A stretch of 64,000 bases of DNA from the NCBI GenBank assembly GCA_963822655.1, contig CAWGIJ010000008.1, positions 9,337-73,336 of the forward strand, given 5' to 3'. This document shows, piece by piece, positions 3,037-49,762 of the stretch. The notes under the pieces were generated by a model. The model was not told the DNA's origin and made no database searches. It saw only the letters and a program-made list of their open reading frames with translations. This DNA is from an uncultured Actinomycetota bacterium (GTDB taxonomy: Bacteria > Actinomycetota > Actinomycetes > Mycobacteriales > Mycobacteriaceae). Each line of letters starts with the position of its first letter. The stretch's first letter is position 1. The translations under genes were made by a program, and so were the position numbers.

Positions 3037-3335
3037 GACACGTTGCCAGCGGTGATCGTTGACCAGGATTTCGATCGATACCCGCTTTACTGTTGCTTTG
3101 CTGCGTAGGCGTAGGGTCACAGTACGGATCCACGGCAGACCAAGGTCGGACCGGAAGAGAAGATTCCTCCTCTCGGCTGTGGCGCTGAGCACGAGCACTA
3201 GGCACCCACGCGAAGTAAAGCCCATCAACTGGGCAAGCGCGGTGGGCTTGCGTCAGGCGAGGAACTCTCTCCTCACGCCGAGGCCACATTTCACTGCGCC
3301 ATCATGCAGCTTGGTAACCGAGTGGTCGATGCTTC

Positions 3336-3367
3336 GGACGGCGCTCCTTTCGTTAGGAGCGTCGTCC
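3336..3367 (+). terminator. Strong GC hairpin in a 400-nt non-coding stretch
   Basis: GGACGGCGCTCCT-ttcgtt-AGGAGCGTCGTCC forms a 13-bp stem with one G.U pair when read on the + strand. There is no U-tract and it lies 300 nt downstream of the SDR remnant, so its function is uncertain. Confidence 0.25.
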
Positions 3368-3450
3368 GACTCATATATGCCGAGCTCCCGAGGCCGTCCA
3401 ATCGATGAGAATCCGTGTCCGTTACGCGGCCGATGGTCAAGACTGGACTC

Positions 3451-4294
3451 ATGACAGATGCCGACGCGGACCGGGTCGCGGTGTACCTCGACTTCGACAA
3501 CATCGTGATCTCGCGCTACGACCAGGTCAACGGCCGCAGCTCGTTCCAGAAGGACAAGGCCAAAGGGCCTGGACAAGCACGCCGACCGGCTCGAGCGGGC
3601 CACCGTCGACGTCGGCGCCATCATCGACTTCGCGTCCTCGTTCGGCACGCTGGTACTCACCCGCGCCTACGCCGACTGGTCATCGGAGGTCAACAACACC
3701 TACCGCGAGCAATTGGTCGGCCGCGCAGTCGATTTGGTGCAGCTATTTCCGGCCGCGGCCTACGGCAAGAACGGCGCCGACATCCGGCTGGCCGTCGACG
3801 CGGTCGAGGACATGTTCCGGCTGCCCGATCTGACGCATGTGGTGATCGTGGCCGGCGACTCCGACTACATCGCGCTGGCGCAGCGCTGCAAACGGCTCGG
3901 GCGTTATGTGGTGGGGGTCGGGGTGGCCGGATCGTCGAGTAAGGCGCTGGCGGCGGCCTGCGACGACTTCGTCATCTACGACGCGCTGCCCGGGGTCGAG
4001 GTGCCCAAACCGGCGCCGAAGACCCGCTCGAAGCCCGCCGACGACGAGCCGCCGGCCCCCGACCAGCAGGCCGCGGCCACCGCTCTGCTGAGTCGCGCGT
4101 TACAGATCGGCACCGAAAAGGACGACGTCGACTGGCTGCACAACTCGGCGGTCAAGGCGCAGATGAAGCGGATGGACCCGTCGTTCAGCGAAAAGTCACT
4201 GGGTTTCAAGTCTTTCAGCGACTTCCTGCGATCCCGCTCGGACGTCGTCGAGCTCGACGAGAGTTCGACGACGCGGATGGTCCGGCTGCGCTGA
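3451..4294 (+). pseudogene. NYN (LabA-like) nuclease domain plus OST-HTH/LOTUS domain protein, frameshift near 3568
   Basis: MTDADADRVAVYLDFDNIVISRYDQVNGRSSFQKDKAKG, then a frame change into LDKHADRLERATVDVGAIIDFASSFGTLVLTRAYADW...NGADIRLAVDAVEDMF...HVVIVAGDSDYIALAQRCKRLGRYVVGVGV (NYN). The C-terminus LHNSAVKAQMKRMDPSFSEKSLGFKSFSDFLRS is OST-HTH-like. Confidence 0.7.
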
Positions 4295-4336
4295 ATCGCA
4301 GGGTTGAATCACGAAACCGCTGGGTAGCCGCGATAA

Positions 4337-4606
4337 ATGAAATCGAAATATGCCGCTCGACTGGCGGCTCTCGCCGCCGGCATCGGGCTCTCCGCTCTGC
4401 CACTGGGGGTTGCGATCGTGCACGCCGCCCCATCCGATCCTCCCCCGCCGTGTCTCAACTGCGAACCCGGACCAGGCGGTGGGCCGGCGCCGGGCCCGCA
4501 GATGCAGGGGCCGTCCATGAAAGGCCCGAACTTAGAGCCGCCGGGGACCACCGGTGTGCAGCCACCAACCGGCGGCGGCCCGAAGAGCGGGCGCACGGCC
4601 GGATAG
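4337..4606 (+). CDS. Small secreted Pro/Gly-rich protein
   Basis: Signal-peptide-like N-terminus MKSKYAARLAALAAGIGLSALPLGVAIVHA, followed by PPPPCLNCEPGPGGGPAPGPQ... low-complexity sequence. The ORF is intact. Confidence 0.5.
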   Translation: MKSKYAARLAALAAGIGLSALPLGVAIVHAAPSDPPPPCLNCEPGPGGGPAPGPQMQGPSMKGPNLEPPGTTGVQPPTGGGPKSGRTAG

Positions 4607-4622
4607 GTAGCGCGTATTCGGG

Positions 4623-5588
4623 TCAGCTCGTCGGAAGCGTGATCGCGTGGATGCGCAGCGCGGCCATCACGTCCGGCTCCGGCCAGCCCGTCACTCGGTA
4701 GCGCGGCGGAAAGTAGCCGGCCATGGGCTGGATGCCGGTCAGATCGACCACGACCGAGAACGGCACAGCGAAATGGCCGTCGTTGTTGATGAAGAAAAGG
4801 TAGTCGACCTCAGGTAGGTCGTAGATCACGCCCTCGCCCCAGATTGCCGCTGAGCCCATTCCGTGTCCGGTGTCGAGGACTTCGGTGGACGCAACGAAGG
4901 CCTCGATCAGCTCGTCTTCGTATAACTGTCTGAGGAATTCGGCCTGCTCGCTGTATTGTCGGACCGCCGCGCAGGTGCGGGCTTGAATTGCACGGCGCCG
5001 CAACGGATGTGGACCGGCCTTGTCGAAGGGCATGACCAGGCCGGCGCATACCGTGAAGCCCTCGGGTGAGACGTTGCGCTCAGATTCGAGGTACATCTTT
5101 TCTGCCGTGTCGTACAGGCCCGAGGCCTCGTGCGGATCGTCGTAGCCGATGATCAGGGTGTCTTCGTTGGGTATGAAGGCCAGCGGGCGTGGGCCGTCCG
5201 GCTGCGCGAACGAAGCCAGCCATCCCGGGGTCAAGATCGCCGACGCGATGTAGGAGCTCTGGCCTGCATCGAAGAAGACACCTCCGGAGCCCGGCTGGTT
5301 GGCGCTGAGCGGATGCATGCGGGCGACGTTTTCCCGACCAGCGGCGAAGATGTCGGTGTCGGTGACACCCCACATCGTGGTGTTGTCCACGGTGACGATG
5401 AGTCGCACGTCGGGCAGATCGATGGCGACCAGTTCGTGCAAGAAGTTGGTGGCCGGCAGGCGCCACGGGATCGCGTCGCCGGGCTTCAGCAGACTCGCGT
5501 AGGTGGCCGGCCGCAGAATCGACCGCAGCAACGGGCGCACTTCGTCCCAGGTCTGGGGCACATCCGGGCCCCCCTCGTTGGGGCTCAC
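4623..5588 (-). CDS. Conserved hypothetical protein (321 aa)
   Basis: Intact ORF with non-repetitive, protein-like composition. No family recognised by eye. Confidence 0.65.
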   Translation of the reverse strand: MSPNEGGPDVPQTWDEVRPLLRSILRPATYASLLKPGDAIPWRLPATNFLHELVAIDLPDVRLIVTVDNTTMWGVTDTDIFAAGRENVARMHPLSANQPGSGGVFFDAGQSSYIASAILTPGWLASFAQPDGPRPLAFIPNEDTLIIGYDDPHEASGLYDTAEKMYLESERNVSPEGFTVCAGLVMPFDKAGPHPLRRRAIQARTCAAVRQYSEQAEFLRQLYEDELIEAFVASTEVLDTGHGMGSAAIWGEGVIYDLPEVDYLFFINNDGHFAVPFSVVVDLTGIQPMAGYFPPRYRVTGWPEPDVMAALRIHAITLPTS

Positions 5589-5659
5589 CGATGCTCATGT
5601 CCGACAGCCTATGTGCAGCAAATCGAGCCGCAAGTCACCAATTTCGGGCCGAATACCCG

Positions 5660-6601
5660 CTACGCGCGCTGTGCGGAGATGAACCAGTGCGTCGGCGAGG
5701 CCTCTTCGAGGCCTTCGGCTGACGGCCGGCCGTAGCTGGCCATCAGCTCGTCGGACGGCGTCGCGGTCGCATCCCAGCCGTGGCGACGCAACCAATCGCC
5801 GATGTCTTCGCGTTCCTCGAAGTACCACAGCTCGTCGGTCTTGGGGACCTCGAGTTGCGAGCCTGCCTCTGCCATCAACTCCCGGACGCGATCCATCCGT
5901 TCACGCCGCACGTCTCGGAGCTCGGGGACGGCGAACTCAGGTCCCAGCCCCTCGACGGCGATCCGGCTGCCGGGTGCCGTGAGCTCTTGGATGCGCTCGA
6001 ACAGCAGGTCCTGCGCGGCGGCCGGCAGATACATCAGCAGGCCCTCGATCGACCAGACGCTCGGCTGTGACGGGTCAAAACCGGCCTGCTGCAACGCTGT
6101 TGGCCAGTCCTGTCGGAGGTCGACCTTCACCTCGACCCGGTTGGCCTTCGGCTCCGCGCCGTGTTCGTGCAACGTCTGCCGTTTGAAGTCCAGCACGCGG
6201 TCCTGGTCGAGCTCGTAGACCGTGGTGCCGTCGGGCCACGGCAGCCGCCACGACCGGGCGTCCAGGCCGGCGGCCAGGATCACCGCCTGCCGAACACCCG
6301 CGTTGGCGGCGTCGATGAACGCGGTGTCGAAAAACTTTGTCCGGGTGGCGAAGTAGCTCACCAGCGCCCGCATCCGCAGCGGCATGTCGGGTTCGGCCTC
6401 GACGACGGCGGCGGGCAGCTCGGGAGCGCCGTACCAGTCCCACACACCGTGGCCGACGCGGTCGAGGAACACCCGCGCGAACGGGTCGTTGATCAGCGGG
6501 TCGCTGCTTTCGGTGTCGGCTGCCCGCGCCGCCGCCACTCCCAGAGCCGTCGCTCCGACGCTCTCGGTGATTTCCCAGCTGTCGTCATCGGTTCTCGCCA
6601 C
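5660..6601 (-). CDS. Class I SAM-dependent (O-)methyltransferase, mycobacterial multi-paralog family
   Basis: [27 protein letters not shown]...[34 protein letters not shown]...[13 protein letters not shown] is the hallmark of the mycobacterial putative SAM-dependent methyltransferase family. A 313-aa paralog lies at 48821-49762. Confidence 0.9.
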
Positions 6602-6795
6602 GACCCGACCCTACGTGAGCCGGTGATGGTCGAGGCGGACGAATGATCGCGGGCTCCGGTTGATTGGCTTAGTCGGCGCTATTTTGCGAGAGCGCGAACG
6701 GTCAGGCAGCCACCAATTGCATACTGAGAGGCCGCTACCGCGGCGACCTGAGTGGCTTCGCCGGGTCTGGGACTTTCGGAGGGATTTCGCAAGCA

Positions 6796-8160
6796 GTGAA
6801 CGATCAACATACAACGTTGCCAAATCCCCATCTGAGCATTTTTCGCCCTTACAGCTTCAACCCCAAGCATGAAGACCAGCTCACGCGCGCCGCGCTGATA
6901 GTTATGAAGCTTGTGGGCCGAGCCCACGATGAATTTCTTGCGCTCGCTAACTGCAGCGCTTTATCGACGCTTCCATCGCCTCGTTACGATCTGCAAACTG
7001 AGGATCTGGTCCCGCCCAACGCCACCGGCACCGCAAGCACGATCAAGAAGCTGGTTAGCGTTTTCCTCACTCCTGACGAACAAGTCCAGGGCTTCGATCA
7101 AGTTGATTCCTCCGATAGGCGTGCTCGCTACGACGGCGTCACCCAGTACGGCTCAGAGCTACTCGTCGTGATTGAGAGCAAGCTCTTCTCGGGCGTGAGC
7201 CACTTCCAGGCACAGAACATCAATCTCAAGGGCGCAAAGTTCAAGAATCGCCGACCGATCTCAATAAGATGGCACGAACTCCTCAACCGCTGGTGGGATC
7301 TAAAGGACACAGCCGATCTGGATCCCGCCGAGTCAGAAATACTAGAAGACTTCTTCGACTACGCCGAGACTAATTTCGGCGACCTCCTTCCATTCACAGA
7401 CCTTGGTCGCTGCGGGGGCAATCGGACGCGGCGGCTGCGCCGGCTGCAGTCAATCTTGTTGGAAGCCACGGGAATTACACCAGAGATCCAAGCCGGCGGA
7501 ACCGACTCTCTGACGGGCCGCACGTACCAGGACGCAGTGAATGTCAAACTCCCCAGCACGGTTGTTACTGCAGCCGACCGCGTCGCAATGTGGATCGAAC
7601 AAGACAGCGTTTGCCTGGCAATGTGGCCATCCGAGCTCTCACAGCAATACCGCCATCTCTACCGCCACCCCAACCGGGTAGAAGCTCTTATCACCCTGGC
7701 TAACCGCCAGGGTTGGGAACTGAATGCGAATTTCCACATTGCCTATCGGTTCGCTCGGCCGTCTCAGCGCTGGTATCCGAAAGTCGCCCTTTCTGGCGCT
7801 CAATACGTTCGGCAGTGGGTCGATGACGTGGCAGGCCACGCAGGTGAGAGGACTCGAGAGACTCTGACTCAGAGTACTTTTCGGAGTTGGATGGTAAGGC
7901 GCGGCTACGCGACTAAGAAGGATATACCGAGCCTAGATGCCTGGTTGAAGACCCGGCCGGCAGGGATAAAGTTCCACATCCGTCCCAGCGTGCAAATCAT
8001 GCGGCGATGGAGACTCAAGTCCGCGATCGCAAAAGATCGAGATGGTCAGCTCGGGGCCCAGGTGAAGATAGCTATCAATCAGATGCTCAAGGCGCTGGAT
8101 GAGCCGGACCTTGACGCCGTATACGAAGGATGGCTTCAGTCCTTGCCATCACAAGCGTGA
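6796..8160 (+). CDS. Orphan hypothetical protein with PD-(D/E)xK nuclease-like motif
   Basis: Intact 454-aa ORF. GTG 6796 lies 12 nt after GGAGGG (6778-6783). The region is visibly more AT-rich than its flanks. The motif RYDGVTQYGSELLVVIESKLF fits D-x(n)-E-x-K, with an upstream HED. Residues from about 200 to 454 match no family I recognise. Confidence 0.7.
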   Translation: MNDQHTTLPNPHLSIFRPYSFNPKHEDQLTRAALIVMKLVGRAHDEFLALANCSALSTLPSPRYDLQTEDLVPPNATGTASTIKKLVSVFLTPDEQVQGFDQVDSSDRRARYDGVTQYGSELLVVIESKLFSGVSHFQAQNINLKGAKFKNRRPISIRWHELLNRWWDLKDTADLDPAESEILEDFFDYAETNFGDLLPFTDLGRCGGNRTRRLRRLQSILLEATGITPEIQAGGTDSLTGRTYQDAVNVKLPSTVVTAADRVAMWIEQDSVCLAMWPSELSQQYRHLYRHPNRVEALITLANRQGWELNANFHIAYRFARPSQRWYPKVALSGAQYVRQWVDDVAGHAGERTRETLTQSTFRSWMVRRGYATKKDIPSLDAWLKTRPAGIKFHIRPSVQIMRRWRLKSAIAKDRDGQLGAQVKIAINQMLKALDEPDLDAVYEGWLQSLPSQA

Positions 8161-8173
8161 GCCGGGGTCTTGA

Positions 8174-8929
8174 GTGAACGCGCGACGGGAAGCCAAAGTC
8201 TCTGTGGAAGCAAACCCTCCGCCAACACCGTCTCGACGGCCGCATATCAACCGGCTCGCGGTGTTCGCCGCGTTCCTGGTGGTGATGTTTTACCTGCTGG
8301 CGGTCAAGCACCTAGTGAATATCGAGGACGTGCGGCACTGGGTGAAGGCGACGGGCCCGCTGGCGCCGTTCACCTACATCGTGTTGTCGGCGGCACTTGG
8401 TGCGATCTTCGTGCCCGGCCCGATCCTGGCGGCGAGCAGCGGGCTGTTGTTCGGCCCGCTGCTGGGTGTGTTCGTGACGCTGGGCGCGACGGTGGGCACC
8501 GCGGTGGTGGCGGCCTTCCTGGGCCGTCGGGCCGGGCGCGACAGCGCGCGGGCGCTGTTGGGCGCCGATCGGGCGGACCGACTTGACGCGCTGATTCAGC
8601 GACGGGGTCTGTGGGCGGTGGTCGGTCAGCGCTTCGTCCCTGGCCTGTCCGACGCGCTGGCCTCGTATGCGTTCGGGGCTTTCGGGGTTCCGTTGTGGCA
8701 GATGGCCGTTGGGGCGTTTATCGGCTCGGTGCCGCGCGCGTTCGTCTACACCGCGTTGGGCGCCTCGATCGGCAACAAGTCGCCCGCGCTGGCCTACACG
8801 GCGATCGGCGTGTGGTGCGTGACTGCCGTGGCGGGGGCCTTCGCGGCGCGGCAGGGGTTTCGGAAGTGGCGCGGGAGTGACGGGCAGGACTCCGTTGAAG
8901 TCCCACCCGTCACACCGCCGAACCAGTAG
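8174..8929 (+). CDS. TVP38/TMEM64 (DedA-related) family membrane protein
   Basis: GTG start. Multi-TM protein with FVPGPILAASSGLLFGPLLGVFVTLGATVGTAVVAAFLGRRAGR and RFVPGLSDALASYAFGAFGV, typical of the family. Confidence 0.8.
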   Translation: MNARREAKVSVEANPPPTPSRRPHINRLAVFAAFLVVMFYLLAVKHLVNIEDVRHWVKATGPLAPFTYIVLSAALGAIFVPGPILAASSGLLFGPLLGVFVTLGATVGTAVVAAFLGRRAGRDSARALLGADRADRLDALIQRRGLWAVVGQRFVPGLSDALASYAFGAFGVPLWQMAVGAFIGSVPRAFVYTALGASIGNKSPALAYTAIGVWCVTAVAGAFAARQGFRKWRGSDGQDSVEVPPVTPPNQ

Positions 8930-9568: not shown

Positions 9569-10054
9569 TTATTCCCTGGCCGCTTCGATAGCGTCGACGA
9601 TCGTCGCGGCTGCACGACCTAGCTGCTCGAGTTGCGCCGCACTCAAGGGCCGCACGACCAGCTGTTGCACGAATTCGGCGTGTCCGGGGGCGGCCTGGTG
9701 GATCTTCTTCTTGCCCGCGGCAGTGAGGACGACAGTGCTTGCACGCCGGTCGTTCTCGCAGGGCCGCTTGACGACCCATCCCCGCTTCTCCAGCCGGGAG
9801 ATCACATGCGACAGTCGGGACAGAGTTGCGTTCGCGCGGTACGCTAGATCGCTCATCTGCAGCGCTCCGCCCTGGGCCTCGGACAGGCTCGCGAGAACCA
9901 GATATTCGAACAACGACATTCCGGCGTTGCGCTGCAGGTCGCTTTCGAGCGCGCTGGGCAGCGTCATGAACAGCCCGACGACATGCCGCCAGGCCTGCTG
10001 CTGGTCGTCGTCGAGCCAGGGCTTCGAGGTCACAAGTCCCAGCTTAAGCCGCAT
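9569..10054 (-). CDS. MarR family transcriptional regulator
   Basis: Winged-helix core LFEYLVLASLSEAQGGALQMSDLAYRANATLSRLSHVISRLEKRGWVVKRPCENDRRASTVVLTAAGKK. ATG at 10054 is preferred over the TTG at 10069. Confidence 0.85.
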   Translation of the reverse strand: MRLKLGLVTSKPWLDDDQQQAWRHVVGLFMTLPSALESDLQRNAGMSLFEYLVLASLSEAQGGALQMSDLAYRANATLSRLSHVISRLEKRGWVVKRPCENDRRASTVVLTAAGKKKIHQAAPGHAEFVQQLVVRPLSAAQLEQLGRAAATIVDAIEAARE

Positions 10055-10101
10055 TGGTTGACGCTTCAAGTATCGCCGTCTAGCGTTGGTTGAAGCATCA
10101 A
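10054..10101. promoter_or_regulatory. Two 16-bp direct repeats, each containing a TTGA-N4-TCAA dyad (candidate MarR operators)
   Basis: TTGGTTGACGCTTCAA (10054-10069) and TTGGTTGAAGCATCAA (10086-10101), 32 bp apart, in the divergent marR/oxidoreductase intergenic region. Confidence 0.4.
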
Positions 10102-10119
10102 CTATTGAAGGGAGTTGTC

Positions 10120-10947
10120 ATGAAGTTCGGAATGATCGGAGCGGGACGGTTGTCTCATGCGATCGCGGGCCACGCCGCCAACGCCGGCTACGAAGTCGTC
10201 TTCAGCAACAGCCGCGGGCCCGAGACGCTCACCGATGTCGTGGACGCCTTCGGCCCGCAGGCGTCGGCCGGGACCGTCGCCGAAGCAGCCGCCGCCGATT
10301 TCGTCGTCCTGGCTCTCTCGTGGAAAGGGGTCGAGCAGGCAGTCCGTAGCCTTCCCGCCCGCAAGGGACGAATACTCATCGACGCCACCAACCAATGGAA
10401 GGCGGTGCCGCCGGACTTCGTCGTCGACGAGCTCGAGGTCGGCGGCAGCGAATGGATCGCCTCACTGATCCCCGACGCACACGTCATCAAAGCGTTCGAC
10501 AACCTGTACTCACCCAAACTTGCCGAAGACCCCGTCACCGACAGCGGCCGCCGGATCCTGTTCTATGCCGGCGACGACCAAGACGCTAAAGACCGGTTTC
10601 GCTCTGTCGTTGACGACTTCGGTTTCGCCCCAGTCGATCTCGGGCCCCTGCGGATGGGCCGCTTGATGCAGGTCGACGGCCCGCTGACCGGACTGCACGC
10701 CATCCGGGAGCCTGTCCCCCACCCGGTGCCGAAAACGACGGACAGCACGGTCGTACCCACCGGATTAGCGGGCACGTGGACCATCGACCCTGCGCATTCG
10801 TCGATCAGCTTCTCGGTGCGCCATCTCATGGTCAGCAGAGTGCGCGGAAGTTTCGGCACTTTCAGCGGTGACATCACGGTCTCTGCTGACGACACTGCTT
10901 CGGTGACGGCCGAGATCGCGGTGGGCTCGGTGCAATACCGGCGATGA
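10120..10947 (+). CDS. NAD(P)-binding oxidoreductase (F420-dependent NADP reductase-like) ORF running in frame into a YceI-like domain
   Basis: GGGAG precedes ATG 10120. Rossmann motif MKFGMIGAGRLSHAIAGHAANAGYEVVFSNSRG is present. No stop separates this domain from TGLAGTWTIDPAHSSISFSVRHLMVSRVRGSFGTFSG. This may be a true fusion or the result of a lost stop. Confidence 0.6.
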   Translation: MKFGMIGAGRLSHAIAGHAANAGYEVVFSNSRGPETLTDVVDAFGPQASAGTVAEAAAADFVVLALSWKGVEQAVRSLPARKGRILIDATNQWKAVPPDFVVDELEVGGSEWIASLIPDAHVIKAFDNLYSPKLAEDPVTDSGRRILFYAGDDQDAKDRFRSVVDDFGFAPVDLGPLRMGRLMQVDGPLTGLHAIREPVPHPVPKTTDSTVVPTGLAGTWTIDPAHSSISFSVRHLMVSRVRGSFGTFSGDITVSADDTASVTAEIAVGSVQYRR

Positions 10948-11286: not shown

Positions 11287-12641
11287 GTGGGGTCGAGCCG
11301 CAAGGCCTGGGCTGCCGCGGTGGCCACGTCGCCGCGCAGAGCGGAGATGGGTGCGCTGCCACGCTGATGAATCGCGTTCGTGAGGAGAATGACGTAGGTA
11401 TCTGAGCCCGGGTCCAACCAGAGCGAGGTGCCGGTGAAGCCGGTGGCGCCAAAGCTGCCAACCGGGAAGATCAGGCCGCGCGGCTTGGAGAACGCCGTGT
11501 CGATATCCCAGCCGAAGCCGAACAGCTCTTGTCCCTCGATGGCCGGATAGTGCGGAGCCAGCAGCGGATCCGTGGCGTTGGGCGTCGTTGCGGCGGCTTT
11601 GCGGAGGGCATCGTCGGCTGCCTCGATCTGCCCTGGCTGGTGGCCGGGCTGCTGCGGAGTCGTCATCACCGCCAGAGTCGCTGGTCGCAGCGGAAAACTG
11701 CTGGGGCGGTTGGCAAGCCGATCAAGCAGGGCCTGCGCAAAGAGGCCGACGTCGTGCGCCGTCGAGAACACACCGGCGTGCCCGGCCACTCCGCCCATCC
11801 GCCGCGCCGTCGGGTCGTGCACGGCGCCCCGAAGCAGATGACCGAAGTCGGGATTCTTGCCCGGGTCCGCACTGCTCTGGTCGTCAACGGCCGTGGGTGC
11901 GATGCGCGGCAACAGATTGGCCGGCGGCAGGTAGCGGGTTTCGGTCATCCCCAGTGGCGCAAAGATGTTCTGCTGGGCGTAGTCGTCTTCTGGTTCGCCA
12001 GTGAGCTTTTCGATCAATGCGCCGAGCGTGATGTAGTTGATGTCGGAATAGCGGAAAACCTCGCCGGGGGCCGACTGCAGCGGTGTGGTGAGCGCACGGC
12101 GAATGCCTTCGGCTTTATCCGGTTGGCTCAAGCCCCACGGGTCTGCGAGGTCGACGTCGATCGGTTCGCCGGAGGTGTGCGTCAGCAACATCCGAATGGT
12201 GACCCGTTGCCGCTCTGCGTCGTTGGCCGCGTTGAAGTCGGGCAGGTAGCTTTGCACGGGCTCGTCGAGCGCGACCTTGCCTTGTTCGTAGAGCTGCATG
12301 ACGGCAGTCGCGGTGGCGAGCGGCTTCGTCAACGACGCGATGTCGAAGATCGTGTCTTCGGTCATCGGCTCGGCAGGGGCGGGCGATCCGTCCAACCCCT
12401 GTTCGCCGGCGAGTTTGCGGGAGCCGTAGGCCTGATGGAACACGGTTTTGCCGCCGTGTCCGATCTCCACCACACCGCCGGGAAGCTTCTCGGCTGCGAT
12501 CGCATCGTTCATCAGCGTGGAGATTGGTCCGAATTCGGTTGCGGCAGGATGCGTTCCCCTCTCGTGGGTCACGACATACCTGGCCGAGGACGCCGCCATG
12601 AGCATCAGTACGGCGATCCCGACAGCGATGGTTGTCCGCAC
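11283..12641 (-). CDS. Serine hydrolase, beta-lactamase class C/esterase family
   Basis: GTG at 12641 gives VRTTIAVGIAVLMLMAASSA (signal/TM). S-x-x-K nucleophile motif FDIASLTKPLATATAVMQL is present. Intact to the stop at 11283. Confidence 0.85.
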   Translation of the reverse strand: MRTTIAVGIAVLMLMAASSARYVVTHERGTHPAATEFGPISTLMNDAIAAEKLPGGVVEIGHGGKTVFHQAYGSRKLAGEQGLDGSPAPAEPMTEDTIFDIASLTKPLATATAVMQLYEQGKVALDEPVQSYLPDFNAANDAERQRVTIRMLLTHTSGEPIDVDLADPWGLSQPDKAEGIRRALTTPLQSAPGEVFRYSDINYITLGALIEKLTGEPEDDYAQQNIFAPLGMTETRYLPPANLLPRIAPTAVDDQSSADPGKNPDFGHLLRGAVHDPTARRMGGVAGHAGVFSTAHDVGLFAQALLDRLANRPSSFPLRPATLAVMTTPQQPGHQPGQIEAADDALRKAAATTPNATDPLLAPHYPAIEGQELFGFGWDIDTAFSKPRGLIFPVGSFGATGFTGTSLWLDPGSDTYVILLTNAIHQRGSAPISALRGDVATAAAQALRLDPT

Positions 12642-12651
12642 AATGCCGGCT

Positions 12652-13971
12652 TCAGATAGCAGAGCCGGGAGCGGGCGGAAACGGAATCGGCGTGAGTGGG
12701 TTGCCGTCACGGATCGACGTACAGTTCTGCGGGGCCGCCAGGCCGGCGAAGCACTGCTTGATCCACGTGGTCGCGCTGTGCAGCCAGATGGGGACGCTCC
12801 AGATGTGGCTGAGGGCGGCGTACTCCTCGTAGTAGACGGTGAGACCTCGCGCGCAGTAGTCGCGCGCGAGCGTGCGCACATCTCCGGCGATCATCACGCC
12901 GTCGCCGGCGCCGATGCCCGCCTTGTTCCCCGGGGTGCCCTCCAGTTCACCGTTGGCGCCCTGACCGATGAACAGCGGGATCGTCGGCGTGCCACCGGTA
13001 CCCATGATCAGCTTGTTGGCGGAGCGGACGAAGAGCGCCAAATGCTCCGGAGTCGGGTAATCGGGGCTTACCAGATCGCTCCACTTCAGACCGGGGTACT
13101 GACCGAGCACGTTGACGATCGACGCGGTCTGCATTTCGCGGAAAATTCTCGCGCCGTTGGGGCTCAGGTACTGCGCCAGTTCGGTCTCGATCTCGAATGC
13201 GCGCGCGATGCCGACCAGCGCCATCGCCAGGACGCCGGCCCAGAAGCCGGTGCCCTCCACGTAAAGCAGGTTGTGCGCCGGGTCGACCAGCACGCCACCC
13301 ATCGCGGCGCCGATCAGGTGCTTGTTGGCGTCGGGTGCGTAGGTGGGGGCCAGCTCGGCGGCCCACTCGGTGGCGATCGCACCGCCGGAATATCCGAGCA
13401 TCGCCACCTGCGCGTCGTTCGGGACGGTCGACGAATTGAACGCGGCGCGAATCGAATCGAGCGTGTTCATGCCGTACTCGGGGCCCGCGGCGAAGTCGGC
13501 CCGCTGGCCTTCGGTGTCGGGCACGATGACCGTGTACCCTCGGCGAGGAACGGGCCGAAGACCGCCGCTTCGACGCTGGGGATGACGCCGCCGAGCCTGA
13601 GTCCACCCTAAATCGCATAGGACGGCTCGTCGTTGCGGTTGAGCGAGTCGTAGGCGGACTGATACGAGATCACCCTCGTCGCGTCGAACTGGAACGGAGG
13701 CTTGATGATCGAGGTGACGTTGACGCGTCGGTTTGCCGGTCTGGCTGGTCGACCGGTAGAGCAGCTGGGTGGTCTCGAGCAACGTCGGGAAGCCAAACAG
13801 GTGGTAATGAAAGCGGCGGGTGTTCAACACCGTTCCCGGTGTGATGCTATCTAGCGGCGTGGAGCCGGTGTAGGAGTAGAACGGATCATCTTGCGGCTGC
13901 GGCGATCCCACGGCAATGCCGGGTACGCCACTGCGGCCCGGATACCACGCCGGTAGCGATGGTGTGGTCAT
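12652..13971 (-). pseudogene. Secretory lipase (LIP family), frameshifts plus an in-frame TAG
   Basis: The C-terminal two-thirds are legible: TVIVPDTEGQRADFAAGPEYGMNTLDSIRAAF...VAMLGYSGGAIATEWAAELAPTYAPD. Upstream, the sequence leaves frame near 13740. The correct peptide NVTSIIKPPFQFDATRVISYQSAYDSLNRNDEPSYAI ends at TAG 13608-13610 and continues GGLRLGGVIPSVEAAVFGPFLAEG, with another shift near 13545. Confidence 0.7.
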
Positions 13972-15688
13972 GTCGTCCCCCAAGCGGTCGGTACAACATT
14001 GCGGCGCCACCGCGCCAGGCGGCTCGTCGGCACCTGAATCGCGGCCATGACCGCGCTCATCGGCGACGCCACCGACTTCGGCAGTGTCTTCGGCTTGGCG
14101 GCCGGCGGGCTATCGCCTTCCCACCACGTCGGCTGCAGCAGCGCCGTCGTCACCGGGATCGCCCTGTCGACGCTGTTGTGCCCCCATCGGCTCGCCCGAT
14201 CGATGGACGCGGCCGAGGGTGCCAGATTCACCGGCGACAGCGTCGGCCCGAATCGGACGAGATGGTCGGCATAGGGCAGGTTGCGTACCATCTGCAGCTG
14301 GATCGCCTGGGTGATCGGCACCAACCAGAGGTTGCGCGGATCCCATTGCGGGTGAAAGCAATCGAACGCCAGATAGCAGGCGTTACGGGTGCCGAGCCGG
14401 CCGTCGCGGACCCGCTTCCACGCCAGTTCGATCGGGACGTTGCTGGCCGTACCGCCGTCGACGAGGGCCGCGATGTCTTCCTCTTCGAAGAGGTCGTCGA
14501 GGAGGGGAATCATCCGCGGGTCGGTCGTTTCGTGGTGCAGCACACCGGGAATGGCCGCCGAGAACGATGCGGCATCGACGACGTCGAAGTCGCGGGCCGG
14601 GACGTCGGCGCCGATGATGATGGGTTTGACGACCCGTAAGTCGATGAAGGCGGCCACTTGCCACATCCGGGTACCGACCACCGGGCCGATGCCGATCGGG
14701 CGAAACGGAACCGATCGCATCTGCAGTGCCGCTAATGCCGGACGGCGGAACCGCGACGGCAGCGCCGTGTACGGCTGCCTGCGCACGCCGGCGACCACGA
14801 CGTCGAACGGAATCGCCAAGTCCGACATGCGCATTCGCTGGCCGTCTTCGCGGCTGAGCATGGCGTGGGCGAACTGGTCGAAGCGCAACGCGAACATGCC
14901 GGCCAGGCCGTGGCGGCGGCGCAGCCGTTCGGGCCCCAGGATGGCGCGGTAGGACACCGTTTTCGCCCAGGCGACGTACTCCTCGATCGGCACCGGCAAC
15001 TCGCGGCTCACCAGGCTGCCCAGGATCGACCCGATCGACGCGCCCATCATGTAGTCGGGCACCTGGCCGGCCTCCAGCAGCCGCTGCATGCCGCCGATGT
15101 AGACGAAACCCGCACCACCGCCGCCGCCGAGGACCGTGACGAGCTTCTTGTACCCGACTTCGGCATCCAATTCGGCTGCGGAGAAGTCGTTTCCGTGCCG
15201 TTCGATGAGCACTTGCCGTTGATCGTCCTGGTCGGCGGCCAAACCCGCCAACGCGTCGCGTGCCGTTTGCAGCGCCGTGATCGGGATCCGGCTCCTCGCG
15301 CAGCGGCCCGTAGAGCGCGTCGGCGACCCGGGATCGCCACGGTGCGATTTCGGCGCCGACCGAGACGTCGCCGCGCCCGCGGCTGCCGCCCGGGCCCGCG
15401 GCACCCGGTTCGAAGTCGGCGAGCCTGGCGAAGTTGAGGATGTAGCGCAGCTTGCGCAGCTCCTCGGCGCTCAAGACATCGGGCTCGGCGAGGTGATGGC
15501 GGATCAGCCGGTTTTCCATCCGCTGCAATAGCAGGGCCGGGCTCGGCCGACGGCAGATCATCGGCGTCGACGGATTCGGCGGCCTCGTCTTCGATCTCCT
15601 CGAGACGTTCGAGCCCGGTCTCGCGGCGGCCCAGGCGGCTGAGCAGCGCGTCGGCGAACGGGATCTGCATGAGGATCAACCTACTCAT
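13968..15688 (-). pseudogene. Patatin-like phospholipase, two N-terminal frameshifts
   Basis: MSRLILMQIPFADALLSRLGRRETGLERLEEIEDEAAESVDADD / ...LLLQRMENRLIRHHLAEPDVLSAEELRKLRYILNFARLADFEPG... / ...KKLVTVLGGGGGAGFVYIGGMQRLLEAGQVPDYMMGASIGSILG. The oxyanion GGG and G-x-S-x-G motifs are present. The stop overlaps the lipase ATG (ATGA at 13968-13971). Confidence 0.75.
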
Positions 15689-48820: not shown

Positions 48821-49762
48821 CTAAGCCTTTCGGGCGAAGACGAATTCGTTGCCCGGCACCAGGTCCTTGACTTTGGGGTCGGGGCCGCGGCCGAAGCCTT
48901 CCATCAGTTCGGCGGCCGGTGTCACCGTCACCTCGAAGCCGTGGCGGGCAAACCACTCGCCGACCGGCTCGCGCTCCTCGAAGTACCACAGCTCGTCGGT
49001 CCGCGGGACCTCGCGATCCGGCTGAGTCTTGGCCAGCACGTCGCGCACCCGATCCATCCGTTGGCGCCGCTTGGCCCGTAGCTCCTCGTCGAGGAACGTC
49101 GGCCCCAGCGCTTCGACCGCAACCCGGCTGCCGGGAGCGGAGAGTTCGGTGATGCGTTCGAACAGCAGTTCCTGCGCCGCGTTCGGCAGGTAGGGCATCA
49201 GGCCCTCGGCGGACCACACGCTCGGCTGCGACGGGTCAAAACCGGCCTCCTGCAATGCCTTCGGCCAGTCGTGCCTTAAGTCGACAGCAACCTCGATCCG
49301 GTTGGCGGCGGGCTTGGCGCCGTGCTCGGTGAGCGTCGAGAGCTTGAAATCCAGTACCCGGTCCTGGTCGAGTTCGTAGACCGTCACGCCGTCCGGCCAC
49401 GGCAGCCGCCACGACCGTGAGTCGAGACCCGCCGCCAGAATCACGGCCTGCGTGATGCCGTCGTTGGCGGCGGTGGTGAAGAACGAGTCGAAGAACTTGG
49501 TGCGCGACGCCATGTAGTCGACCATCGCGTCCATCTGCAGCGGCAGGTCGGGCTCGGCCTCGAGCACCTCTTGCGGCAGGTCTGGACCCGAGTGCCAGCT
49601 CCACACGCCGTCGCCGGCGGCGTCGAGGAACACCCGCGCGAACGGGTCTTGGATCAGCGGGTTGTCGCGCTCGGTTTCCGCCGCGCGGGCCGACGCCACG
49701 CCCAGCGCCGTCGCCCCAACGCTTTCGGTGATTTCCCAGGAGTCGTTGTCAGTTCTCGCCAT
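48821..49762 (-). CDS. Class I SAM-dependent (O-)methyltransferase, paralog of 5660-6601
   Basis: ATG 49762: [27 protein letters not shown]...[34 protein letters not shown]. 313 aa, roughly two-thirds identical by eye to the other copy. Confidence 0.9.

Follow-up and report, generated by a model that had tools for sequence, protein, structure and literature searches.

What is the role of an intact, foreign-looking gene that is found wedged between two core genes of a mycobacterial genome? The question is raised by an open reading frame (ORF) encoding 454 amino acids (aa) at positions 6796 to 8160 of a stretch of 64,000 nucleotides (nt) from contig CAWGIJ010000008.1, which derives from an uncultured member of the Mycobacteriaceae; this whole stretch is referred to below as the window. 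A preliminary description of the window took the ORF for an orphan with a PD-(D/E)xK-like nuclease motif and suggested a stand-alone function in defence or DNA processing. The present analysis places the ORF in an undescribed family of two-domain proteins of about 430 aa. We infer nuclease activity for the N-terminal domain, sensing for the C-terminal module and a role in immunity for the whole, and the chances that the product is a stand-alone immune protein combining a sensor with a nuclease appear to us to be evenly balanced.

A two-domain family and its invariant residues

The ORF, its ribosome-binding site and the parts of its product are located in the window as follows.

6796 to 8160, forward strand: the 454-aa ORF, stop codon included, with a GTG start, read directly from the sequence
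6779 to 6784, forward strand: Shine-Dalgarno-like GGAGGG, 11 nt 5' of the GTG, kept in a second contig that carries the gene (L088)
6796 to 7404, forward strand: N-terminal domain, residues 1 to 203, a putative PD-(D/E)xK-type catalytic domain, assigned from the order of secondary-structure elements and from the invariant E26, S88, D113, E127, K129 and W159
6871 to 6873, forward strand: codon of E26, in the H-E-D-Q-L-T-R helix
7132 to 7134, forward strand: codon of D113, at the start of the hairpin strand that precedes the one with E-x-K
7174 to 7182, forward strand: codons of E127-S128-K129 (E-x-K motif), which close the following strand
7402 to 8157, forward strand: C-terminal module, residues ~203 to 454, a putative sensor or substrate-recognition module that is basic and rich in Trp and is fused elsewhere to TIR and PLD/HKD domains

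The ORF is intact and preceded by a ribosome-binding site, as had been described, the spacing from GGAGGG to the GTG being 11 nt, and the start at 6796 agrees with the N-termini of the closest homologs. Searches of Pfam, PADLOC and NCBIfam with the protein gave zero matches at E-values up to 10, a search of PDB sequences gave nothing meaningful (all matches had E>=0.4), and a PHROGs scan of 53 family members gave just one match (E=0.017), to a family of unknown function. The earlier statement that the protein belongs to no recognised family thus stands. That it is an orphan does not: a word-indexed search gave 103 homologs, an exhaustive search gave no fewer than 568 clusters at 50% identity when the threshold was E<=1e-3 and 331 when it was E<=1e-10, and 192 GTDB species representatives encode a relative. 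Members occur in Mycobacterium, Mycolicibacterium, many metagenome-assembled genomes (MAGs) of the Solirubrobacterales, a Streptosporangiaceae MAG, Turicibacter and a Nanoarchaeota MAG. Their database titles all read 'hypothetical' with the exception of P0054, the title of which mentions an appr-1-p processing domain.

Conservation was assessed in an alignment of 180 full-length members, in which identity has a median of 32% and a minimum of 18%. Conservation is highest at D113, E127, K129 and W159, each present in 179 of the 180 sequences, followed by S88 and R216 (178/180) and Q67 (177/180); the position of E26 is covered by 166 sequences, and 165 of them have the Glu. The D...E-x-K segment that the preliminary description had picked out is therefore real, and E26 is added to it as a further invariant residue.

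An AlphaFold2 model based on a 53-sequence alignment has a predicted local distance difference test (pLDDT) score of 92.4 and a predicted template modelling (pTM) score of 0.89. In this model, the N-terminal domain is composed, in order, of a helix that starts with E26 (residues 26-39), two strands (63-68 and 82-92), a hairpin (112-118/122-128), a further strand (148-158) and a second helix (159-171). D113 opens the first strand of the hairpin and E127-x-K129 closes the second, with a spacing of 13 residues from the Asp to the Glu, and only four residues form the helix that connects core strands 3 and 4. The modelled order of elements and the placement of these residues fit a PD-(D/E)xK core in which this helix is very short. 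The catalytic constellation by which this superfamily is recognised, D...(D/E)-x-K, often together with an acidic residue in the first helix, is present in the protein. The N-terminal domain is probably a nuclease, an assignment based mainly on this invariant constellation and on where it falls in the predicted secondary structure.

The C-terminal module, its partners and its neighbours

The C-terminal 250 aa had been left unassigned. This remains correct in so far as the module gave no fold or family match in PDB and Pfam, nor a match to a recognised reader fold, but it proved to be a separable module that is also paired with TIR and PLD domains. Its isoelectric point (pI) is 9.8, as against 5.9 for the N-terminal domain, and it contains nine Trp residues. 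Among the matches of the exhaustive search were proteins that resemble the family in this module alone. Hidden Markov models were built for the two domains, and 288 proteins were classified with them. The combination of N-terminal domain and C-terminal module accounts for 227 of the 288; the rest are mostly fragments, and four proteins have genuinely different architectures.

In the first of these four, P0111, a TIR_2 domain (residues 3-121) is followed by about 200 aa without a domain assignment and then by the C-terminal module (51% identity). Its gene has been called on a 649-kb contig of GCA_002086795.1, where two HTH_17 genes lie beside it. P0112, which is complete on three contigs, begins with the C-terminal module and continues with a TIR domain and predicted transmembrane helices; its gene is followed by a gene of the TIR-STAND type (TIR-AAA_16/NACHT). 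P0222 joins an HKD/PLD domain to the C-terminal module: the segments FHPKLYLIE...GSGNLT were recognised by eye, the corresponding Pfam match (PLDc_2, E=3.5e-4) lies below the cut-off, and the gene is found near AAA_5 and DNA-methylase genes. Finally, P0197 (615 aa) has an N-terminal region of about 360 aa without a Pfam match in front of the C-terminal module, and this region (residues 1-360) might be another effector and thus a fourth partner domain.

The C-terminal module is therefore separable and is joined to three established effector chemistries, which is the pattern of modular immune proteins. Its exchange between TIR and PLD partners supports the view that the usual N-terminal domain is an effector, and strengthens the case for defence. 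A more far-reaching proposal would be that the C-terminal module is an immune sensor domain not recognised before, characteristic of a new family of modular single-protein anti-phage effectors in which the usual output is a divergent PD-(D/E)xK nuclease and the occasional output TIR or PLD, and which has become fixed as a core gene in the Solirubrobacterales. We put this forward tentatively, as something rather less than probable.

The genomic neighbourhoods were compared for the best 80 of the 192 or more loci. Mycobacterial homologs, with identities of about 50-60%, are borne on islands. In three species, the gene is located 3' of tRNA-Leu(CAG), by the fhaA-pknB cluster, and the cargo is different in each: TacA/TacT in M. 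asiaticum, an unannotated 428-aa gene in Mycobacterium sp. SMC-4, and a type I R subunit with DUF6119 in a Mycobacterium MAG. In Mycolicibacterium sp. CR10, the cyclase of a cyclic oligonucleotide-based antiphage signalling system (CBASS) with E1-E2 is encoded 2.7 kb upstream of the homolog, and a 649-aa dCTP-deaminase-like protein downstream. The order in Mycobacterium sp. B14F4 is family gene, DUF6308, HARE-HTH and type II/IIG methyltransferase, with phage capsid and integrase genes nearby. Further loci have DDE transposase, ORFs like serine recombinases (by their N-terminal motif only), AAA_25/HTH_17 and a UvrD-like helicase. The suggested association of homologs with defence islands or mobile elements thus holds for the mycobacteria, but neither for the locus of the window nor for the Solirubrobacterales.

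Some of these neighbourhoods show additional regularities. The CR10 locus is a compact defence island, in which segments 3059-7292 and 12906-14855 of the locus (L004) flank the homolog at no more than 3 kb on each side. DUF6308 (225-241 aa) is encoded immediately downstream of the homolog in four of the six species of the mycobacterial clade with about 50% identity (L092:9311-9988, L001:11413-12138, and approximately 11410-12110 in both L003 and L008); it is co-directional, with an overlapping stop codon, in one species and convergent in three. As an obligate partner it was ruled out, since neither the window nor the closest clade (60% identity) has it, and it may instead be an accessory partner; a literature search on DUF6308 returned nothing. 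Two other genes, L001:8038-9324 (428 aa) and L089:6086-6973 (295 aa), have products that match nothing in Pfam and are weakly similar to each other (24% identity over 275 aa, E ~1e-6). Each of them adjoins the homolog, at loci that are unrelated to each other, and they may represent a second recurring family of neighbours.

Horizontal entry as a single-gene insertion

The site occupied by the gene in the window has the following features.

5660 to 6601, reverse strand: methyltransferase of the leucine carboxyl methyltransferase (LCM) type, the native left flank, not a DNA methyltransferase (Pfam PF04072, E=4e-65)
6614 to 6623, forward strand: left copy of a perfect 10-nt direct repeat, CGTGAGCCGG, in native DNA abutting the left junction
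6624 to 8179, no strand assigned: inserted segment of ~1.55 kb, absent from close relatives according to the empty-site alignment, with its right end within 8165 to 8179
6624 to 6795, forward strand: non-coding leader of 172 nt, common only to the second carrier L088 (88% identity over 114 nt)
8156 to 8165, forward strand: right-hand counterpart of the 10-nt direct repeat, CGTGAGCCGG, overlapping the TGA stop at 8158 to 8160
8174 to 8929, forward strand: membrane protein of the VTT/TVP38 family, the native right flank (Pfam PF09335 and cluster name)

The ORF had been described as AT-richer than its surroundings and foreign-looking, and this is borne out by its composition and by comparison with relatives. 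The GC content is 0.55-0.58 across the ORF and 0.65-0.69 on both sides (0.563 for the gene against 0.652 for the flanks), and at third codon positions (GC3) it is 0.64 in the gene as against 0.82-0.86 in the LCM, VTT and YceI genes. The VTT protein of the window belongs to a 90%-identity cluster titled 'TVP38/TMEM64 family protein [Mycobacterium sp.]'. Six contigs (L082-L087) with a VTT protein of that cluster show the empty site: the LCM and VTT genes are adjacent, with a spacing of 46 bp, and the gene order is otherwise the same, which bears out the earlier impression of an ORF wedged between core genes. In the alignment with the empty site, homology breaks off at 6624 and resumes at about 8180, where it is weak at first, becoming clear from about 8225 on; the insert consists of the 172-nt leader and the gene. 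This Mycobacterium lineage acquired the gene by horizontal transfer, in the form of a lone-gene insert of about 1.55 kb in the spacer between LCM and VTT.

A second carrier, contig L088, has the gene at the identical site. Between the window and L088, nucleotide identity is 93.2% for the gene, 93.8% for LCM and 89.8% for VTT, and the empty-site lineage is further off, with flanks that are 86-87% identical. Since the gene and its flanks have diverged alike between the two carriers, there was one insertion, older than the split of both lineages. The ratio of nonsynonymous to synonymous substitution rates (dN/dS) of the gene between window and L088 is 0.166, which indicates purifying selection on the protein after the insertion.

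At the position of the left repeat, the empty site reads ACGGAGCCGG. L088 also carries the direct repeat, in a slightly imperfect form with CGTGAGCCCGG as its right copy. The 10-nt repeat may be a target-site duplication or microhomology. A search of the insert ends for transposase, integrase and terminal inverted repeats found none, and a scan of the leader (6624-6795) for sigma-70 promoters gave no consensus-like match.

Two further observations concern the DNA at the junctions. The first ~55 nt of the leader (6624-6680 in the window, 7874-7922 in L088) are unrelated between the carriers, the remaining leader and the gene being 88-93% identical, and this left-junction segment is a small replaced or hypervariable stretch. 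The native DNA flanking the site contains an 11-nt inverted repeat, CGTGAGCCGGT at 6614-6624 and ACCGGCTCGCG at 8250-8260 (91% complementary), the core of which, GAGCCGG/CCGGCTC, is present in the empty-site sequence too; a local hairpin formed by this repeat may have favoured insertion.

The VTT gene now lies directly 3' of the insert on the same strand. The distance of 13 nt to the next gene that was given in the preliminary description is correct for the longest VTT reading frame (GTG 8174), but alignment with orthologs makes the in-frame GTG at 8204 the likelier native start, which leaves a gap of 43 nt. On the other side, the ORF and the adjacent methyltransferase were considered as a restriction-modification (R-M) pair, and this was ruled out: the methyltransferase is of the LCM type (PF04072), a protein or small-molecule O-methyltransferase, and it is native, being present in the empty-site relatives also. 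A cognate DNA methyltransferase, which would be expected next to the nuclease of a type II R-M system, does not adjoin the ORF. A second LCM-type paralog is encoded at 48827-49762 on the reverse strand of the window, with 67% identity to the LCM protein of L082.

Between YceI and a beta-lactamase-family gene, the window has a MarR regulator (9569-10069, reverse strand) and an F420-oxidoreductase-YceI fusion (10090-10947, forward strand); in L082, the beta-lactamase gene comes straight after YceI. This looks like another small difference by insertion or deletion, some 1.4 kb away from the first. The window had been called full of pseudogenes, and this is partly true locally, in that 4 of the 12 neighbouring genes (HTH_67, DUF998, NYN and patatin) are frameshifted or fragmented in comparison with intact orthologs in L082, so that their contrast with the intact ORF is real on a local scale; these frameshifts could be real pseudogenes, but they could also be indels of long-read assembly. 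The split genes lie at about 3-400 (HTH_67), 1238-1400 (DUF998), 3451-4291 (NYN/OST-HTH, with a change of frame near 3565) and 14004-15670 (patatin). The break in NYN is a cluster of small indels from a GGG/GG run, and L088 is similarly split in NYN and beta-lactamase.

Immunity, cellular maintenance or homing

If the product is an immune protein, its C-terminal module would recognise a cue derived from an invader or a nucleic-acid substrate, and its N-terminal domain would cleave nucleic acid as a metal-dependent phosphodiesterase. The protein would then act like a restriction nuclease that has no methyltransferase and is either type IV-like or fused to a sensor. By analogy, the closest functional counterparts would be methyltransferase-less, sensor-fused restriction nucleases such as END, and the architecture is compatible with type IV. 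In END nucleases, an inactive EndoIII domain provides an exchangeable specificity (PMC12191111). As in these and in enzymes of type IV (Mrr, for example), a (putative) nuclease and a separate, exchangeable recognition domain are united in one polypeptide, there is no cognate methyltransferase, and homologs lie in defence islands. Unlike them, the ORF family has its putative nuclease at the N-terminus, its C-terminal module matches no EndoIII, SRA, winged-helix or other known reader fold, and it has no sequence relation to the restriction-enzyme models of PADLOC or Pfam. There is a likeness, too, to Avs/STAND-type systems and to Thoeris-like logic, given that a single conserved module takes different effectors, PD-(D/E)xK-like in the majority and otherwise TIR or HKD/PLD, and given that one such gene stands by a TIR-STAND gene. 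Those systems differ from the ORF family, which lacks NTPase/STAND, SIR2, CARF and SAVED domains, matches no model in PADLOC, is core-like in one order, and has only rare alternatives.

Against an immune nuclease of this kind stand the fold and profile searches, the missing matches in PADLOC and PHROGs and the behaviour of the family in the Solirubrobacterales; to these are added the rarity of the alternative-effector architectures (4 of about 230 full-length proteins) and the setting of the ORF in the window, where it is flanked by housekeeping genes and lies outside any island. The searches bear on the rival explanation that the N-terminal domain is not a PD-(D/E)xK nuclease, its E, D, E and K serving some other chemistry or binding and the short motif being a coincidence on a different alpha/beta fold. 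We consider this explanation, which overlaps with the functional rivals discussed below, to be unlikely, although the searches are on its side. With the whole chain, Foldseek gave no match at E<0.03 in PDB and BFVD and no significant nuclease match, the best in PDB being a DUF1054 protein (E=0.043). The N-terminal domain modelled alone (pLDDT 85) matched at best a non-nuclease in PDB (ANT(2'')-Ia, E=0.13), and nucleases were not enriched among its top 50 matches. The nuclease fold anticipated in the preliminary description was thus recovered at significance neither with the whole chain nor with the domain. Foldseek matches to DUF1054/YktB, YbjN and PprA were weak, with root-mean-square deviations of 7-17 Å, and were regarded as noise. 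Profiles of the whole protein, the N-terminal domain and the C-terminal module found nothing among PDB sequences; in a set of 5.8 billion proteins, the two domain profiles found family members only, with no Pfam-annotated bridge and no further architectures; and an hhalign comparison of the N-terminal profile with the N-terminal nuclease domain of type I HsdR was negative. PADLOC, which had no match to the query, gave isolated single-member matches (E ~0.01-0.06) among the 53 members. On the other hand, conservation among 180 sequences is highest at four acidic or basic residues that are spaced, and placed on the secondary structure, exactly as in the superfamily. PDDEXK_4 (PF14281) gave sub-threshold matches for two of the 53 members of one set and three of the 82 of the other (5/135, best E 0.016), and it is the sole Pfam family that recurs across both member sets and the sole one found in more than one member of the second, independent set. 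When the 10 most divergent members were scanned singly, DUF3839 alone appeared over the D..ExK region, the PDDEXK_4 matches belonging to other members. The best BFVD match is a 'PD-(D/E)XK nuclease superfamily protein' (E=0.034, probability 0.51), and two of the six top matches are annotated as PD-(D/E)XK nucleases. In relatives, moreover, the N-terminal domain is replaced by an HKD/PLD nuclease or by TIR. A survey of the superfamily in 2012 found that PD-(D/E)xK enzymes evade sequence- and structure-based detection (PMC3424549), and the negative fold and profile searches are therefore weak evidence. Measured against that superfamily, the nearest Pfam entry of which is PDDEXK_4, the modelled protein is alike in its first-helix Glu, its Asp at the start of a strand and its E-x-K on the next hairpin strand; it is unlike in having no significant sequence, profile or Foldseek match, in its four-residue helix, and in a C-terminal module that is foreign to the superfamily.

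Among 71 Solirubrobacterales species, at least 67 have the gene at a fixed place in the order pgm, MBL-fold gene, family gene, pdxT and pdxS, and ruvCAB is found about 4.5 kb from it. Its GC content there is native (0.70 against 0.68 for the flanks), it evolves about as slowly as PGM (median pairwise identity 0.78 against 0.81), and its divergence is correlated with that of PdxS and PGM (Spearman 0.61; 0.71 for PdxS against PGM). The gene in the Solirubrobacterales behaves as a vertically inherited, core-like gene, and such slow, syntenic, core-like behaviour is atypical of defence genes. A conserved housekeeping context with ordinary GC content, which the preliminary description had named as speaking against its proposal, is thus found in this order, outside the mycobacteria. 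The main rival explanation builds on these facts: the protein would be a cellular nuclease of DNA repair or recombination, or of RNA maturation, ancestral and core in the Solirubrobacterales and sometimes transferred as useful cargo. It agrees as well with a window gene that has no defence neighbours and is under purifying selection. Even so, we find this explanation doubtful, since outside the Solirubrobacterales the gene is sporadic and resides in tRNA-Leu islands or with R-M, CBASS and toxin-antitoxin genes, transposases and recombinases, since a C-terminal module common to TIR and PLD proteins, one of them by a TIR-STAND gene, is hard to square with repair, and since close relatives of the window organism manage without the gene. 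A third explanation, a selfish free-standing gene like those of homing endonucleases that cuts the empty LCM-VTT spacer and is copied in by repair, is very improbable. It would account for a single gene inserted in a 46-bp spacer with no mobility gene, for the 10-nt repeat at the junctions and for the same site being filled in two diverged carriers, and free-standing homing endonuclease genes are likewise lone nuclease-like genes in short spacers between conserved genes, with no transposase or integrase. However, the carriers have co-diverged with their flanks, which speaks for one old event and not for recurrent homing, and members of the family occupy many unrelated sites. Homing genes tend to decay once fixed; long-term purifying selection and vertical, core-like conservation in the Solirubrobacterales would be unexpected of them, and the TIR and PLD partners of the C-terminal module have no role in homing.

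For the stand-alone nuclease of defence or DNA processing that was proposed at first, the foreign origin of the gene, its intactness, the selection upon it, its invariant residues and the mycobacterial islands all speak in favour, whereas the fold was not confirmed and the role in defence is one that we infer.

The family illustrates how a PD-(D/E)xK-like enzyme may escape both profile and fold searches. It also shows an unusual split: in mycobacteria the gene is sporadic and carried on islands, but in the Solirubrobacterales it is syntenic, core-like and slow to evolve. This could reflect the domestication of a defence gene or the recruitment of a cellular nuclease into immunity. If the protein is indeed a stand-alone immune nuclease, it would represent a new family of at least 568 clusters at 50% identity that has no model in Pfam, NCBIfam or PADLOC, and its C-terminal module would add a new recognition domain to the parts from which bacterial immune systems are built. 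In mycobacteria, the gene would then be a candidate determinant of mycobacteriophage resistance, with relevance to the phage therapy of mycobacterial infections.

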